64,000 nucleotides of DNA from Nitrospinales bacterium. Lineage in GTDB: Bacteria; Nitrospinota; Nitrospinia; Nitrospinales; JAJDAT01. Positions 23,161-60,467 of this stretch are shown here, one piece after another. Position 1 is the stretch's first letter, and every line of letters begins with the position of its first letter. The stretch covers positions 1,173 through 65,172 of the forward strand of contig JBHHYO010000007.1 in NCBI GenBank assembly GCA_046757665.1, read 5' to 3'. The notes under the pieces were generated by a model that saw nothing but the letters and a program-made list of their open reading frames with translations, was not told the DNA's origin and made no database searches. A program made the translations under genes and the position numbers.

Positions 23161-23415
23161 GGGGATACAGCCTCCTTGAAAATGGTGGACGGGCGGTTGG
23201 AACACCGTCAAAAAAATCTCTGAAGTCTGTAAACAGCAAGATATATGCCAACCGGCATGGTGTTTCCTCATTCCGCTCCCTGGGTCCTCAAATTTCAAGA
23301 TCATCCAAAAATTTTTTTGTTTTTCCCCGCTCCTTTTTCTTGCCATGGATTTGGCGCCATTTTATAACAAATTGAATTTATTGATATTATATCTATTTCT
23401 CAAAAGGCCGCTATT

Positions 23416-52826: not shown

Positions 52827-55700
52827 CTAAACGATGCAGACGGCCTGTACTTGCTTGAGGTCGCACTGGCCCTTGAAGATTTTCCAGATGCCGTCTTGTT
52901 TCAGGGTGGTCATGCCGTCCCGGATGGCTTGTTCGCGGAGGTCGTCGATCAGGTCCTTTTTCATGATCATGTTTTTCATGACGTTGGTTCCCTCCAGCAG
53001 TTCATGCAGGCCGGTGCGGCCCGCGTAGCCGGTGTTCATGCACTTTTCGCACCCGACGGCTTTGTTGAGGGTCAGGTCGTCGGTGTATTCGATTCCCAGG
53101 GCGGGGAATTCGTCCTTGCCGTATTCCCCCACCAGGATATCGAATTCCTCGCGGCTGGGATGATAGGCTTTCTTGCAATTTTTGCAAAGGGTGCGCACTA
53201 GCCTCTGGGCGAGAATCAACAACAGGGCATCGGCGAAGTTGAGGGGATTCATCCCCATGTCGAGCAGGCGGGTGATGGTTTCCGGCGCGGAGTTGGTGTG
53301 CAGGGTGCTGAATACGAGATGCCCGGTCAGGGACGCTTCCAGCCCGATGGCGCAGGTTTCGGCGTCGCGCATTTCACCGACCATGATGACGTCTGGATCA
53401 CAGCGCAGGAAAGACCGCATGGCGCGGGCGAAGTTCAGCCCGATCTTGTCTTGCATCTGCACCTGGCGCAAGCCCTTCTGGGTGATTTCCACGGGGTCTT
53501 CCGCGGTCCATATTTTCCTGTCGGGGACGTTGATATGCCCCAGCGCGGAATGGAGCGTGGTGGTTTTACCCGATCCCGTGGGGCCGACGACGAGAACCAG
53601 GCCGTAAGGTTTGGATATTTTTTCCTTGAGCAAGGTCAGGTTGCGTTCGGAGAAATTCATTTTGTCCAGCGGAATGGGCTTGCTGGCGGCCAGGATACGC
53701 AAGACGGCGTCTTCGTTGTTGCCGACGGTGGGACAGGTGGCGACGCGGAACTCGACTTCGTTTTTGCCGTACTTCATTTTGATTTTCCCGTCCTGGGGCA
53801 GGCGTTTTTCGGCGATGTCCAGTTTGGACATGATCTTGAGGCGCGACAAAAACGCCTGGCGATACATGGCTGGGATTTCCTCGTAAACCCGGCAGGCCCC
53901 ATCCTTGCGGTAGCGGATGGTCATGTTTTCCTTGCCGATGCCGGGTTCGATATGAATGTCGGAGACTCCCTGGTCGTAAGCGTCGGTCAGAATTTTGTTG
54001 ACCAGGCGGACGATGCCGCTGTCGCTGTCGCTGATGGCGCTTTCTTCCTCCTCGTCCATCACGGTCTGTATGTTGCCGTCCTCTTCCTTCTCTGCCCTTA
54101 GGGCGGACAACAGGGAGGAAATTTCCTCGGTCTCGCCTTCCTCGATGGCTTCCTCGATGGCCTCCTCGCCGTCTTCGGTGGTTTTCAGAAAGTCCAGGAT
54201 ATCCAGTTTCAATCCCACCTTAAACTCAACCTTTTTCCTCCGGAAAATGAGTTTGATGTTTTGGATGTTGCTCTCTGAACTGGGATCGTCGACAAGAATG
54301 ACGGCTTTTGTTTTGTCGTTTTGAATGGGCACCCAGAGATTTTTCAGGAGGTAATTTTTGTTCAGGCCGGTAAAGACTCTGGGGTCCAAAACGATGGAAG
54401 AGTTATAGCCGTAATAGGGGACGTTATAAAAGTGTTCCAGGGATTTGCCGACCTCCTCGCGTTTCACGTTGAAATTCCTTACCAGCACGGTTTCGGTGTC
54501 GAGGTTCTCTACTCTGGCCTTGGCGGTGGCGTCGGTCAACTCTTCTTCGGTGATAAGCCCCTTGTTCAGTAGCAGGCTGAACTTGGTGGGTTTGGGCGGT
54601 ACGAATTTGGTCTGGTTGTAAAAAGCCAGCGCCAGGGTTTCGGCCATGAGCAGGCCGTCTTCTTCGTCCAGAGCGTTGAACCATGCGCCGCTTTTCTTGT
54701 TGATCAACTGGAGGACGCCCATCAGCTTTTTTTGATGTATGAGCGGATAGACCAGCATGGACCTGGACTTGAACCCCGTTTTTTTGTCCCAGGAACTGTC
54801 GAAAGACAGGCTGGCGTGATATTTTTTTAACTCGTCCTCATTGTAAACATCGTTGATATTGAGAATTTTTTGTTTCCATGCCGCAAATCCGGCAACGCTT
54901 TTTGGGGAGATGGGAACGCGGATTTCCTCGATGGCTTCGCCGGTTTTGACTTTGGAGTAAATCTCGTTTTTTTCGGAGTCGAGGACGTAAATGGTAATGG
55001 CCTCGGCGTCAAACAACTCCAGAATGGATTTTTTTAGCTCGATGAGGATGCTGTCGACATTCTTTGCGGCATGGATTGCCTGGGTGATGGCGTGGGATTT
55101 TTCCGCGCGTTCGTATGTTTGTTTGGCCGGCCCTTCCATGGGCAGTTTTTCGAGGTCCAGTTTGATGAGCGCCAGCCCAAGGACGGGGGAGATCATTTTT
55201 GCCCGGTTCAAATCATCCGTCGTGAACTGTTCCCCGTTTTTCTTGTTTATGATCTCCATGATGCCCACCATTTTTTTGTTGTGGGGCAGGGGGATCACCA
55301 ATAGCGACCGTGTGCGGAAATTCAATTTTTGGTCCCAGGAGGAGTCGAAAGAGAGTTGCGGATGATGTTTGGACAGTTCTTCGGCGTTGTACGCATCGGC
55401 AATGTTGAGGGGTTTGCCGAGGGCCGCGACATAGCCGACGAGGTTGTCTCGGGAAATATTGAAGCGGATTTCCGGAACGTTGTCAGCGGCCGTATTCTCG
55501 GCATAGAGTTGCCGTTTTGCCCGGTCCAGCCTGAACAGGGTTACCACCTCGCAATCGAACAAATCCGTGAGCGCCTCGGTCAGCGGTTTGATCAGTTCGC
55601 TGATCTTGTTGCTCGATTGCACTTGCGCGGCAATCTTTTGCCACCGGGCCGCGGCTTCTTGAATTTTTTTGTCGGGAATTAATATGTCAGAAGTCGTCAT
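52827..55700 (-). CDS. GspE/PilB/MshE-type secretion ATPase with two N-terminal GAF-like domains and a GspE-N-like domain
   Basis: Internal duplication (...LSFDSSWDQKLNFRTRSLLVIPL... / ...LSFDSSWDKKTGFKSRSMLVYPL...). Walker A GPTGSGKTTT, VGEMRD, TGHLVFSTLHTN, tetracysteine CKNC...CEKC. Confidence 0.88.
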   Translation of the reverse strand: MTTSDILIPDKKIQEAAARWQKIAAQVQSSNKISELIKPLTEALTDLFDCEVVTLFRLDRAKRQLYAENTAADNVPEIRFNISRDNLVGYVAALGKPLNIADAYNAEELSKHHPQLSFDSSWDQKLNFRTRSLLVIPLPHNKKMVGIMEIINKKNGEQFTTDDLNRAKMISPVLGLALIKLDLEKLPMEGPAKQTYERAEKSHAITQAIHAAKNVDSILIELKKSILELFDAEAITIYVLDSEKNEIYSKVKTGEAIEEIRVPISPKSVAGFAAWKQKILNINDVYNEDELKKYHASLSFDSSWDKKTGFKSRSMLVYPLIHQKKLMGVLQLINKKSGAWFNALDEEDGLLMAETLALAFYNQTKFVPPKPTKFSLLLNKGLITEEELTDATAKARVENLDTETVLVRNFNVKREEVGKSLEHFYNVPYYGYNSSIVLDPRVFTGLNKNYLLKNLWVPIQNDKTKAVILVDDPSSESNIQNIKLIFRRKKVEFKVGLKLDILDFLKTTEDGEEAIEEAIEEGETEEISSLLSALRAEKEEDGNIQTVMDEEEESAISDSDSGIVRLVNKILTDAYDQGVSDIHIEPGIGKENMTIRYRKDGACRVYEEIPAMYRQAFLSRLKIMSKLDIAEKRLPQDGKIKMKYGKNEVEFRVATCPTVGNNEDAVLRILAASKPIPLDKMNFSERNLTLLKEKISKPYGLVLVVGPTGSGKTTTLHSALGHINVPDRKIWTAEDPVEITQKGLRQVQMQDKIGLNFARAMRSFLRCDPDVIMVGEMRDAETCAIGLEASLTGHLVFSTLHTNSAPETITRLLDMGMNPLNFADALLLILAQRLVRTLCKNCKKAYHPSREEFDILVGEYGKDEFPALGIEYTDDLTLNKAVGCEKCMNTGYAGRTGLHELLEGTNVMKNMIMKKDLIDDLREQAIRDGMTTLKQDGIWKIFKGQCDLKQVQAVCIV

Positions 55701-58265: not shown

Positions 58266-59156
58266 ATGAAAATACTGATCCTGGGGTCCCGGGGGATGCT
58301 GGGACACGATCTGCTCCGCGCCTTCGCAAACTCCGGCCATGAAACGGTCGGGGCGGAGCGGACGGACCTGGACATCACCGATGCGCGGGCCGTGTCCCGC
58401 TTCATTCAACATTCGCGGCCCCGGTGGGTGATCCTTGCCGCCGCCTATACCCGGGTGGATGACTGCGAATCGAATCGCGACCGGGCGTTTGCGGTCAACG
58501 CGCAGGGGCCGAAGCATGTCGCCGTCGCCTGCCGGGAAGCCAACGCCGGGTTGTGCTTTGTCAGCACCGATTACGTGTTCGACGGCGGCAAAAATTCTCC
58601 TTACACCGAAGAAGACTCCGCCAACCCGCAAAACGTTTACGGCGAGTCCAAGCTGGCGGGGGAAAAGAATGTCCAGGAATTTTCCGATGAGTTTTTGATC
58701 GTCCGCTCCTCCTGGCTTTATGGCCTTCACGGCAGGAACTTCGTGGAAACCATCCTGGCAAAAGCTCAATCGCAACCGGAACTGAAAGTTGTTGACGACC
58801 AGGTGGGAGCGCCCACCTGGACCGTGGACTTGGCCGCGGGCATCGTCTCCCTGGTTGAAAAAGGGACGGGCGGAATAGTCCATGTGACCAATGCGGGAAA
58901 CTGTTCCTGGCACGAGTTTGCCGAAAAAATCCTGGAATTGAACGGCGTGCGCGGGGTGGCCGTCCGGCCGGTTTCCAGCGCACAATTTCAAGCCCCGGCG
59001 CGCCGTCCCGCCTGTTCCCGGCTGGCCCTGGAGCGATTCCGGAAACTCACGGGCCATGCCTTGCAACCCTGGCCGCAAGCGCTCGCCCAATACCTGCAGG
59101 AAAGGAAAAAACAGGTGGAAACGGGAAAGTTTTTCCCCGCCGGAAGAAATGAATAG
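58266..59156 (+). CDS. rmlD: dTDP-4-dehydrorhamnose reductase
   Basis: MKILILGSRGMLGHDL, STDYVFDG, YGESKLAGE. Confidence 0.9.
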   Translation: MKILILGSRGMLGHDLLRAFANSGHETVGAERTDLDITDARAVSRFIQHSRPRWVILAAAYTRVDDCESNRDRAFAVNAQGPKHVAVACREANAGLCFVSTDYVFDGGKNSPYTEEDSANPQNVYGESKLAGEKNVQEFSDEFLIVRSSWLYGLHGRNFVETILAKAQSQPELKVVDDQVGAPTWTVDLAAGIVSLVEKGTGGIVHVTNAGNCSWHEFAEKILELNGVRGVAVRPVSSAQFQAPARRPACSRLALERFRKLTGHALQPWPQALAQYLQERKKQVETGKFFPAGRNE

Positions 59157-59247
59157 CATACCTTTGTTTGCGGAATCCAAAGAAGTGTGGTTGTAACTAC
59201 TTGAAATACAGGTGTCTGGTTTTTATTTTTCGCAAACGCGCATAGTC

Positions 59248-59263
59248 TGGCATACGATTTGCT
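59248..59263 (+). promoter_or_regulatory. Sigma-54 type -24/-12 promoter (TGGCAT-N5-TTGCT)
   Basis: ctggcatacgatttgct. GG at 59249-50 and GC at 59261-62 give exact 12-nt register. 92 nt downstream of the rmlD stop. Confidence 0.5.
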
Positions 59264-59272
59264 TTATAATCA

Positions 59273-59427
59273 GGCGAAGATTCGGACTGGCACACTCCTT
59301 ACCCGGATGGGTTCGCTTTTACCAGGGAGTTGAACTCATTCGGGGTGCCTCTGCTTTTTCTGGCGCGGCATTTGCCAATTTTCCCTATTTTTTTGCGACC
59401 GGAGTTTTTGAACTCCGGTTTTTTTTT
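59273..59427 (+). ncRNA. Candidate ~155-nt sigma-54-dependent small RNA (or 3'UTR-derived RNA of the rml operon)
   Basis: Bounded by the -24/-12 element and a strong intrinsic terminator. The only ORF inside is 8 codons with no SD. Confidence 0.3.
59398..59427 (+). terminator. Rho-independent terminator
   Basis: accggagtt-tttg-aactccggt (9-bp perfect stem) followed by T8. Confidence 0.8.
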
Positions 59428-59533
59428 GCCTGTTGCGTTGCCGGACAATCCTACCCCCTTTCATTCCCCAATCCCCCGTCTCAAAAGAGGTTCCACCGTC
59501 GCATACCTGCATTTCGCGCTATATGTAGGGGCA

Positions 59534-59561
59534 GTTGGCGGTTGACAGTTGACGGTTGGCG
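59534..59561. repeat. Tandem heptamer repeat (GTTGGCG GTTGACA GTTGACG GTTGGCG)
   Basis: Four contiguous 7-nt units with consensus GTTGRCR. Confidence 0.7.
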
Positions 59562-59604
59562 GAACAAACCGGAGACGGGAGGCCGGAGGCGGCCAACCGT
59601 GATC

Positions 59605-59710
59605 GTCATTGCGAGGCGGCTCAGCCGACGAAGCAATCCAGAAAGGACCCATTCCTACCGGGCGTGGCCCGACTGGATCGCCACGCCGCCGGTGGGCGGC
59701 TCGCGATGAC
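59605..59710. repeat. Imperfect ~106-bp palindromic (MITE/REP-like) element
   Basis: GTCATTGCGAG...GCAATCCAG at 59605-59639 mirrors CTGGATCGC...CTCGCGATGAC at 59673-59710, with one mismatch in each terminal block. Confidence 0.55.
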
Positions 59711-59784: not shown

Positions 59785-60467
59785 GCGCTCCCTGCGGCTT
59801 TGCGGTGATTTCGGTATTGTAAATTTTAATCTTCAAAATGCGACATTCGGCATGGAAAAATATGTAATAAAAATAGTTTTTAATATTGATAAGTTAAGAA
59901 TAAATAATTAAACCTTTTTCTAGCACGGTTTTTCCGCGAAAATCGTTGATTTTTTACCTGACGGGAGAGCTGGAAAACCGGTTGCATGACAAGGGTTTTC
60001 CGGGTTTACAACCTGTCATTTAGACTATTTCGTTCCTCGTTTTAAAAAAAAATTTTTCTGCAAAAACCGGCTCCGGTCAGGTGCAACCGGCGGTGCAAAC
60101 GCTTGCAAGAGGATGGCGTGGCGGTCCCGGTCAGGGTTCCTGCGTCAAGCTCGGCTCCAGTTTGTATGGAACGGATGCGTGGTTTGTCTTGCCGGATGGG
60201 GTGGATCTAAAGCCGGCACGCTGAGCGGGACGTGTCATGGATGGCGGCCTCTGTGGGGGTCGATAGCCGGTTCGTTTGTCCGGAGTGGCTGGGCCGGGAA
60301 GCAACAGGTGGGCCGCGATTAACGTCTCATTGTTCTTGACCATGAGGGTTGTCTCCATTGGGTTGCGAATAGCTTTCTTATCGGATGGTTTTCGACGAGA
60401 CTTTATCAGTCAATGTCGAAATAAAAATGGAAGGGAAATGGGTCTTGTGAGGGCGGGCGAGAGCGGT

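Follow-up and report, generated by a model that had tools for sequence, protein, structure and literature searches.

A candidate sigma-54-type small RNA gene downstream of rmlD and its relatives in Nitrospinales

GlmY and GlmZ of the Enterobacteriaceae are small RNAs (sRNAs) expressed from sigma-54 promoters which are activated by GlrR and have IHF sites; in E. coli, a sigma-70 promoter overlaps the sigma-54 promoter. GlmY acts by protein mimicry, and GlmZ activates glmS. The Qrr1-4 sRNAs of Vibrio depend on LuxO and sigma-54, and also on Hfq. Other well-described groups include the RsaE/RoxS-type sRNAs, which have C/U-rich seeds that pair with Shine-Dalgarno (SD) sequences, and the DapZ/MicL type, which are derived from 3' UTRs and have their own promoter. 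Nitrospinota includes the main marine nitrite oxidisers. Full-text literature searches found no regulatory RNA described for Nitrospinota, and nothing relevant on sigma-54, rpoN or small RNA in Nitrospina/Nitrospinae.

The region which follows the rhamnose-sugar genes in the window (the whole 64,000-nt stretch of Nitrospinales DNA that was analysed) very probably holds a real gene of about 155 bases for a small regulatory RNA that has not been described before. The full model is that of a free-standing sRNA gene (59248-59428) which would be driven by sigma-54 and an activator, and which would most likely act in trans by pairing at ribosome-binding sites (RBSs); its probability is put at roughly 0.6. 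The narrower claim, that an sRNA gene is transcribed independently from a sigma-54-type promoter, can be held with good confidence. The RNA is, as far as the comparison reaches, a new sRNA family of a known kind, the sigma-54-dependent sRNAs, and is so far confined to Nitrospinales. The first-pass annotation had proposed an enhancer-dependent sRNA of ~155 nt as its main reading. Comparison with relatives favours this reading: the -24/-12 elements are invariant, conservation is bounded by the promoter and the terminator, substitutions keep the predicted hairpin, and there is no conserved ORF. The features of the locus are listed in Table 1.

Table 1. Features predicted at and around the small RNA locus; coordinates are positions in the window.
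Feature	Coordinates	Strand	Remarks
Candidate activator palindrome (imperfect), GGGAAAGTTTTTCCCC	59123..59138	.	~144 nt upstream of predicted start; tentative
IHF-like site, TAACTACTTGAAA	59194..59206	+	YAANNNNTTG..., reverse of WATCAANNNNTTR; 54 nt upstream of TGGCAT
Spurious ORF, 165 aa (judged)	59212..59709	+	GTG start; no Pfam match; no counterpart in L083
Sigma-54-type promoter, TGGCAT-acgat-TTGCT	59248..59263	+	GG at -24/-25, GC at -12/-13; exact consensus match
Predicted small RNA, ~155 nt	59274..59428	+	start predicted 12 nt past the -12 C; 3' end in the U-run
Conserved 5' single-stranded stretch, GAAGAUUCGGACU	59276..59288	+	invariant in 7 loci; largely kept in truncated L093
Bulged hairpin	59289..59349	+	stem GGCAC (59289-93)/GUGCC (59345-49); 8-nt bulge ACUCCUUA (59294-59301); long hairpin 59302-59344
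Variable 3' half	59352..59396	+	small hairpin CUGC...GCGG, then A/U-rich linker CAUUUGCCAAUUUUCCCUAUUUUUUU; common only to L083
Intrinsic terminator	59397..59428	+	9-10 bp stem, loop UUUG, U9; -14.8 kcal/mol

On the + strand, the predicted RNA gene is preceded by genes for a sugar-phosphate nucleotidyltransferase, RmlB and RmlD (58266-59156). A 1.3-kb non-coding stretch lies 3' of rmlD; beyond it is a convergent operon on the - strand which encodes a TPR-trypsin protein and a small ORF.

Homologues were found via the RNA body or via synteny, not via the promoter. GTDB species genomes scanned with RmlD gave 80 loci with a best identity of 54%; the RNA is absent from all 80, and there is no close relative among them. 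A protein database led to L083, a 68-kb ENA contig which has the same gene order and an RmlD 84% identical to that of the window. The window and L083 align at 86% over 59248-59444, an interval which opens with TGGCAT and closes ~16 nt beyond the U-run. On the 5' side, the 91 nt that separate the promoter from the rmlD stop are unalignable, as is most of the sequence after the terminator. No copy was found after rmlD in relatives with RmlD identities of 64-67%. An 18-mer from the RNA body, used to scan JGI metagenomes, recovered the L083 species once more and, in addition, a second, different locus (L088). The other four of the six 18-mer matches (L087, L089, L090 and L092) were set aside as chance; none has any resemblance beyond the 18-mer, and L087 and L092 score <=15 bits by the model of the RNA. 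Two matches to the invariant 17-mer in viral contigs were likewise due to chance.

The ENA assembly that contains L083 also has a contig identical to L088; this assembly, probably one organism, thus carries two copies. Copy A is linked to rmlD, and copy B is found between a PNP_UDP_1 gene and a convergent Kelch-repeat gene. Further B copies were traced through relatives of PNP_UDP_1, in L097 (GCA_036152755.1), L100 (GCA_046757265.1), L098 (a Logan assembly) and L104 (partial). The 76-nt 5' domain of the RNA recurs at the B locus in four or five other Nitrospinales lineages, and is present twice in one assembly. L102 has a divergent, poorly pairing B copy which looks decayed or remodelled. A shortened copy is present in the window's own MAG (L093, L094), with a protein accession 115 numbers away from that of the window RmlD. 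In L093 (3670-3745), the promoter (TGGCGT-cagggTTGCA) survives, as do the 5' 27 nt apart from five changes; CCCCUUACUUUUGGAAGGGG is found in place of the long hairpin, and the Kelch stop codon lies inside the CCUUAC core. This copy also looks decayed or remodelled.

In the window, L083, L088, L093, L097 and L100, the downstream neighbours are on the opposite strand, and no co-oriented ORF follows the RNA at any locus examined. A cis-regulatory leader, riboswitch or attenuator was therefore rejected, as at none of these loci does the RNA lie in the 5' UTR of a co-oriented gene. Large genes encoding GAF-GAF-MshEN-T2SSE ATPases are found upstream of the rml genes (window 52827-55700, - strand; L083 1-5598); there are two in tandem in L083.

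The sequence c-TGGCAT-acgat-TTGCT is present at 59247-59263 on direct reading. It had been described as the best -24/-12 match in the window; it is indeed an exact match, but it is not the sole best, since an equally exact one is found at 23250-23235 on the - strand. Exact TGGCAY-N5-TTGCW thus occurs twice in the 64-kb window against 0.05 expected, and none of 100 shuffles reaches two. With one mismatch allowed, there are five -24/-12-like matches against 3.6 expected, which is not an unusual count. The second exact match (TGGCATatatcTTGCT, 23235-23250) is followed ~65 nt downstream by AAGGAGG and the start codon (ATG, 23160) of a ~100-aa ORF; because of this position it looks like an ordinary sigma-54 promoter of a gene. 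Counterparts of the upstream motifs of the 59-kb locus are not obvious there by eye.

Since the 18-mer was taken from the RNA body and the promoter was left out of the search, conservation of the promoter is an independent test. TGGC[AG][TC]-N5-TTGC[AT] is found upstream of the RNA domain in all of L088, L097, L100, L098, L104 and L093. In an alignment of eight loci anchored on the RNA start, every column of the 60 nt upstream varies except those of T-x-TGGC, TTGC and a TA pair. Six different five-base spacers occur (ACGAT, CAGGG, CAAGG, TAAGG, TTAGC and TTGGC), and the flanks are unalignable. Two marks of a sigma-54 promoter are found here: the consensus with exact spacing, and homologues which keep the -24/-12 elements rather than the surrounding bases. 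TGGC lies 28 nt from the conserved GAAGAUUCGG in seven of the eight loci, all of which have a purine at the predicted +1; in L097 the two are 43 nt apart. Because of this fixed spacing, the expected start is the purine two bases before the conserved RNA, G59274 in the window. A TATAAT box (59265-59270) abuts the -12 element in A copies only. It is not taken as the main promoter, since it lacks a preceding -35 element and went unused in a sigma-70 scan. A sigma-70 reading also fails to explain the conservation, as the box is absent from all B copies.

Further upstream, the IHF-like motif is in register (-54±1 from TGGC) in most of the eight loci, though the flanks are unalignable; in L100 it is at -54 in an anchored alignment. 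L097 and L098 have a degenerate form in which TTA or TTT replaces TTG. Motifs resembling GGGAA(A/T)nTTTTTnCCC, the candidate palindrome GGGAAnnTTTTTnCCC, are found at -125/-126 from TGGC in the window, L083 and L100, with a near-variant in L098. The L100 form, GGGAATTTTTTGCCC, is one base further upstream than that of the window (-126 vs -125). Related GGGAAAATTTTGAC motifs are found ~10 bp further up in other B loci, at about -135 in L088, L097 and L093, with a near-variant in L104. The pattern occurs once in the 64-kb window; it was defined post hoc, after the data had been seen, and the palindrome is tentatively considered a candidate enhancer only. The predicted enhancer, bend site and -24/-12 core are arranged as in textbook sigma-54 promoters, and from this arrangement we infer dependence on sigma-54 and an activator. 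Genes or motifs for rpoN, bEBPs (GAFTGA, RpoN-box), Hfq-like proteins, CsrA and IHF were not found in the window or in the related Nitrospinales loci, which are genome fragments.

The candidate palindrome overlaps a 14-aa C-terminal extension of RmlD (QVETGKFFPAGRNE, window 59112-59156) which is common only to the window and its L083 orthologue. This tail is missing from another 84%-identical RmlD (P0003) and from all of the more distant RmlD relatives aligned. Because the palindrome lies inside a tail unique to these two, the comparison suggests that the end of rmlD received an insertion of the complete cassette (about 59112-59444). Such a cassette would account for the odd RmlD tail.

The + strand of the predicted RNA has a minimum free energy of -62.8 kcal/mol (z = -5.3); z is -1.9 for the - strand. 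The model scores 103-108 bits on the + strand and 10-21 bits on the - strand; these scores and the G-U pairs assign the RNA to the + strand. The consensus fold of the 76-nt 5' domain consists of a free GAAGAUUCGGACU, a GGCAC/GUGCC stem, the bulge ACUCCUUA on the 5' side, and a 19-pair hairpin. In some B copies, GAAGAUUCGGACU could pair with a CCGA(A/G) after the domain. In a three-sequence alignment (window, L083, L088), pairing is kept in every variable paired column (100% of cells); the changes are G-U to G-C, and one further pair occurs as G-U, A-U and G-C. L100 and L098 have an additional U-A to C-G exchange. With seven sequences, 93.5% of cells pair, and in two pairs both partners have changed; covariation scores 0.147, compared with 0.111 for shuffles, of which 6/500 reach the observed value. 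These figures are based on six or seven closely related sequences in an alignment fitted to the model. Because the sequences are few and very similar, the covariation is supportive but is not proof. A check of conservation and covariation in relatives had been proposed at the outset, and its outcome is positive, if only suggestive: the segment is kept in L083, and substitutions in the well-conserved copies keep the hairpin paired. No match at gathering score to Rfam 15, which includes the Qrr, GlmY and GlmZ families, was found in the window or in six related loci. The best match below threshold is ncS16 (23.4 bits vs a threshold of 48), and it is driven by the terminator.

The 3' halves of B-type copies are unrelated to those of A copies. 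The terminator described in the first-pass annotation, with stem accggagtt (59398-59406)/aactccggt (59411-59419), loop tttg and a T-run at 59420-59427, is present as described; the run is nine T long if 59419 is counted, and a terminator scan returned the same hairpin with ten pairs. It has the G+C-rich stem-loop and U-run of a Rho-independent terminator. Eight of the 18 stem positions differ from L083, and every pair still forms: three have both partners changed and two have one. L100 and L098 have strong terminators of their own, L097 has a weak one spanning the Kelch stop codon, and none was recognised by the scan in L088.

Several other blocks near the locus are conserved or repeated. A 30-nt block, GCATACCTGCATTT(C/G)GCGCTATAT(G/A)TA(G/A)GGG, is 82% conserved between window 59481-59531 and L083 9265-9315, and its flanks are not conserved. 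The short repeats which follow it differ: the window has GTTGGCGGTTGACAGTTGACGGTTGGCGG, and L083 (9318-9480) has three repeats of ~33 nt at intervals of ~75 nt. This block may be the promoter or leader of a small repeat array; alternatively, it may be another RNA. CATTGCGAGG-N11-ACGAAGCAATC (59607-59638) occurs once in the window. Position 59607 is exactly where both Logan contigs of this organism (L081, L082) end, which suggests that this element is repeated elsewhere in the genome or community. An AT-rich block with ttttacctgacggga (59821-60007) is 73% conserved with L083. The region 60153-60435 is 68% conserved with L083, and covers a small - strand ORF (60131-60358) downstream of the TPR-trypsin gene.

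In the proposed mechanism, RNA polymerase with sigma-54 would bind TGGCAT-N5-TTGCT, and an enhancer-binding protein, probably on the upstream palindrome, would activate the promoter with the help of an IHF-type bend. Transcription from near G59274 to the terminator (59397-59428) would give the ~155-nt RNA, whose 5' domain would form a long hairpin leaving GAAGAUUCGGACU and the bulge unpaired. The A/U-rich linker and the terminator U-tail would serve as a chaperone-binding module. The most likely action would be base-pairing in trans at RBSs of mRNAs (complement UAAGGAGU), which would block translation. As a mode of action this is tentative, with somewhat less than even odds. It is favoured because the exposed bulge is anti-SD-like, and because the linker and U-tail are the usual chaperone-binding layout. 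The bulge is complementary to UAAGGAGU, and with its flanks (CACACUCCUUACC) to RBSs of the UAAGGAGUG type. The locus also appears to have the architecture of a trans-acting sRNA, with a promoter and terminator of its own, and neither a conserved ORF nor a co-oriented gene after it.

The candidate seeds show no variation and are predicted to be unpaired. There is a single target lead located at an RBS, in one species: orf83 of L083, which encodes an 83-aa putative lipoprotein (MRGVLRQAGGFLFGLVFGIMPYGC...). Its RBS, GGGUAAAAGGAGUGU, lies six bases before the ATG, and the predicted duplex has an energy of -29.4 kcal/mol. At L083 14506-14529, the orf83 RBS GGGTAAAAGGAGTGT (motif GGGUAA..AAGGAGUGU) forms 13 pairs with the sRNA bulge and flanks, with a 2-nt bulge. 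In the window's organism, the orthologue is expected just beyond the window end. No convincing target was found in the available sequence. Duplex energies for every candidate start in the window were too noisy to be of use in predicting targets. A scan for 9-mer complements gave TAAGGAGTGT at 56141-56132 (- strand); this was rejected as chance, with no credible start and no match in the L083 equivalent.

The main rival explanation retains a sigma-54-dependent RNA, but in this case the invariant bulged hairpin would bind or sequester a protein, in place of pairing with mRNA. The 76-nt domain, stems included, is almost invariant where flanking proteins are only 55-66% identical, which exceeds the need of a short seed, and the 3' halves are interchangeable. 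However, each RNA has one putative binding element, where known titrating RNAs have repeated motifs; the exposed sequence is a classic anti-SD-type seed; and neither locus has a linked gene for a partner protein. Titration of a CsrA-type protein in particular was rejected, since the 3-4 GGA motifs are, by our own count, at about chance level. Protein binding is on balance unlikely. Unlikely too, and somewhat more doubtful, is the idea that the RNA is a signal-induced anti-SD decoy, competing with ribosomes for many SDs, or the ligand of an unknown protein. The decoy idea arises because the bulged hairpin displays CACACUCCUUA, a look-alike of the 16S rRNA 3' end (CACCUCCUUA, which we take to be the E. 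coli form). If either the decoy or the protein-ligand reading were true, the RNA would act globally, not on particular genes, as a regulator controlled by an enhancer-binding protein in Nitrospinota. A cis-antisense regulator, reading into the convergent gene (Kelch at B loci, the TPR-protease operon at A loci), is improbable. The 3' part of the RNA does overlap the Kelch 3' end in B loci, the CCUUAC core extends over the Kelch stop codon in L093, and L088 is without a clear terminator; but in the window ~700 nt separate the terminator (59428) from the convergent operon, which ends at 60131, the terminators of L100 and L098 precede the Kelch gene, and it is the 5' domain, not the overlapping part, which is conserved.

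The two remaining rivals do away with a separate regulatory RNA. In one, the rml operon simply has this hairpin and terminator as its 3' UTR and terminator, and the promoter match arose by chance. In its favour, the segment has the same orientation as rmlD, and -24/-12-like matches with one mismatch are no commoner than chance. The first-pass annotation had itself offered a terminator that ends the rml operon, with the promoter yielding a 3'UTR-derived RNA, as its alternative. The part concerning the terminator stands: as the sole + strand terminator between the rmlD stop (59156) and the 59397 region, it probably also ends rml transcripts. The rest does not, since the same promoter and 5' domain are found at a locus without rml genes, and the rmlD relatives at 64-67% identity are without the segment; the RNA is thus not an rml 3'UTR product by nature. 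The -24/-12 positions are also the only invariant ones upstream, and this rival as a whole is very improbable. In the other, the locus encodes a small protein, in the 8-codon ORF or in a longer one, for example the 165-aa ORF. The 76-nt core is open in two forward frames. Against this, the only ATG-initiated ORF inside is indeed the 8-codon one noted earlier, ATGGGTTCGCTTTTACCAGGGAGTTGA (59307-59333), which has no SD and loses its stop in L083. The doubt cast earlier on the 165-aa ORF is borne out, as it crosses sequence which is unalignable between relatives; the ORF which overlaps the conserved core in L088 reads a different frame. A six-frame chimera of the core had no match in any frame in a protein database of 5.8 billion sequences, and the substitutions keep base pairs. 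A coding function is extremely improbable, and the annotation of the 165-aa ORF can be corrected as unlikely to be real.

A free-standing sRNA gene of the sigma-54 type accordingly remains the preferred reading. With a complete predicted control region, a defined RNA body, a likely seed and two paralogous loci, the candidate would offer a way into a signal-dependent post-transcriptional circuit of an uncultured lineage.

One close parallel in gene organisation is GlmY/GlmZ. Both there and here, a stand-alone sRNA gene has a sigma-54 promoter, an upstream activator site (a candidate here), an IHF site in between (IHF-like here) and an intrinsic terminator; both have two paralogous copies per genome; and the overlapping sigma-70 promoter of E. 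coli recalls the TATAAT next to -12 in the A copies. In contrast to these parallels, there is no sequence or structure similarity, with nothing at Rfam gathering score, and nothing here points to protein mimicry or glmS activation. With Qrr1-4, the family shares multiple paralogous sigma-54 sRNAs with a near-invariant region, the rest being diverged, each apparently with a Rho-independent terminator. Its sequence is unrelated, has no Rfam match and comes from a different phylum; the conserved part is a structured bulged hairpin here, whereas in Qrr it is an open 32-nt stretch. As in RsaE/RoxS-type sRNAs, an exposed pyrimidine-rich ACUCCUUA is complementary to AAGGAG-type RBSs, which suggests RBS occlusion; unlike in these, there is a single motif in a helix bulge instead of repeated C-rich loops, the promoter is of sigma-54 type, and there is no homology. 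The A copy resembles the DapZ/MicL type in that it lies directly after rmlD, is co-oriented with it, and has a terminator probably common to the operon. It differs in that the promoter follows the stop codon rather than lying inside the CDS, with only the candidate activator site overlapping the extended RmlD C-terminus, and in that the family also exists outside the rml context.
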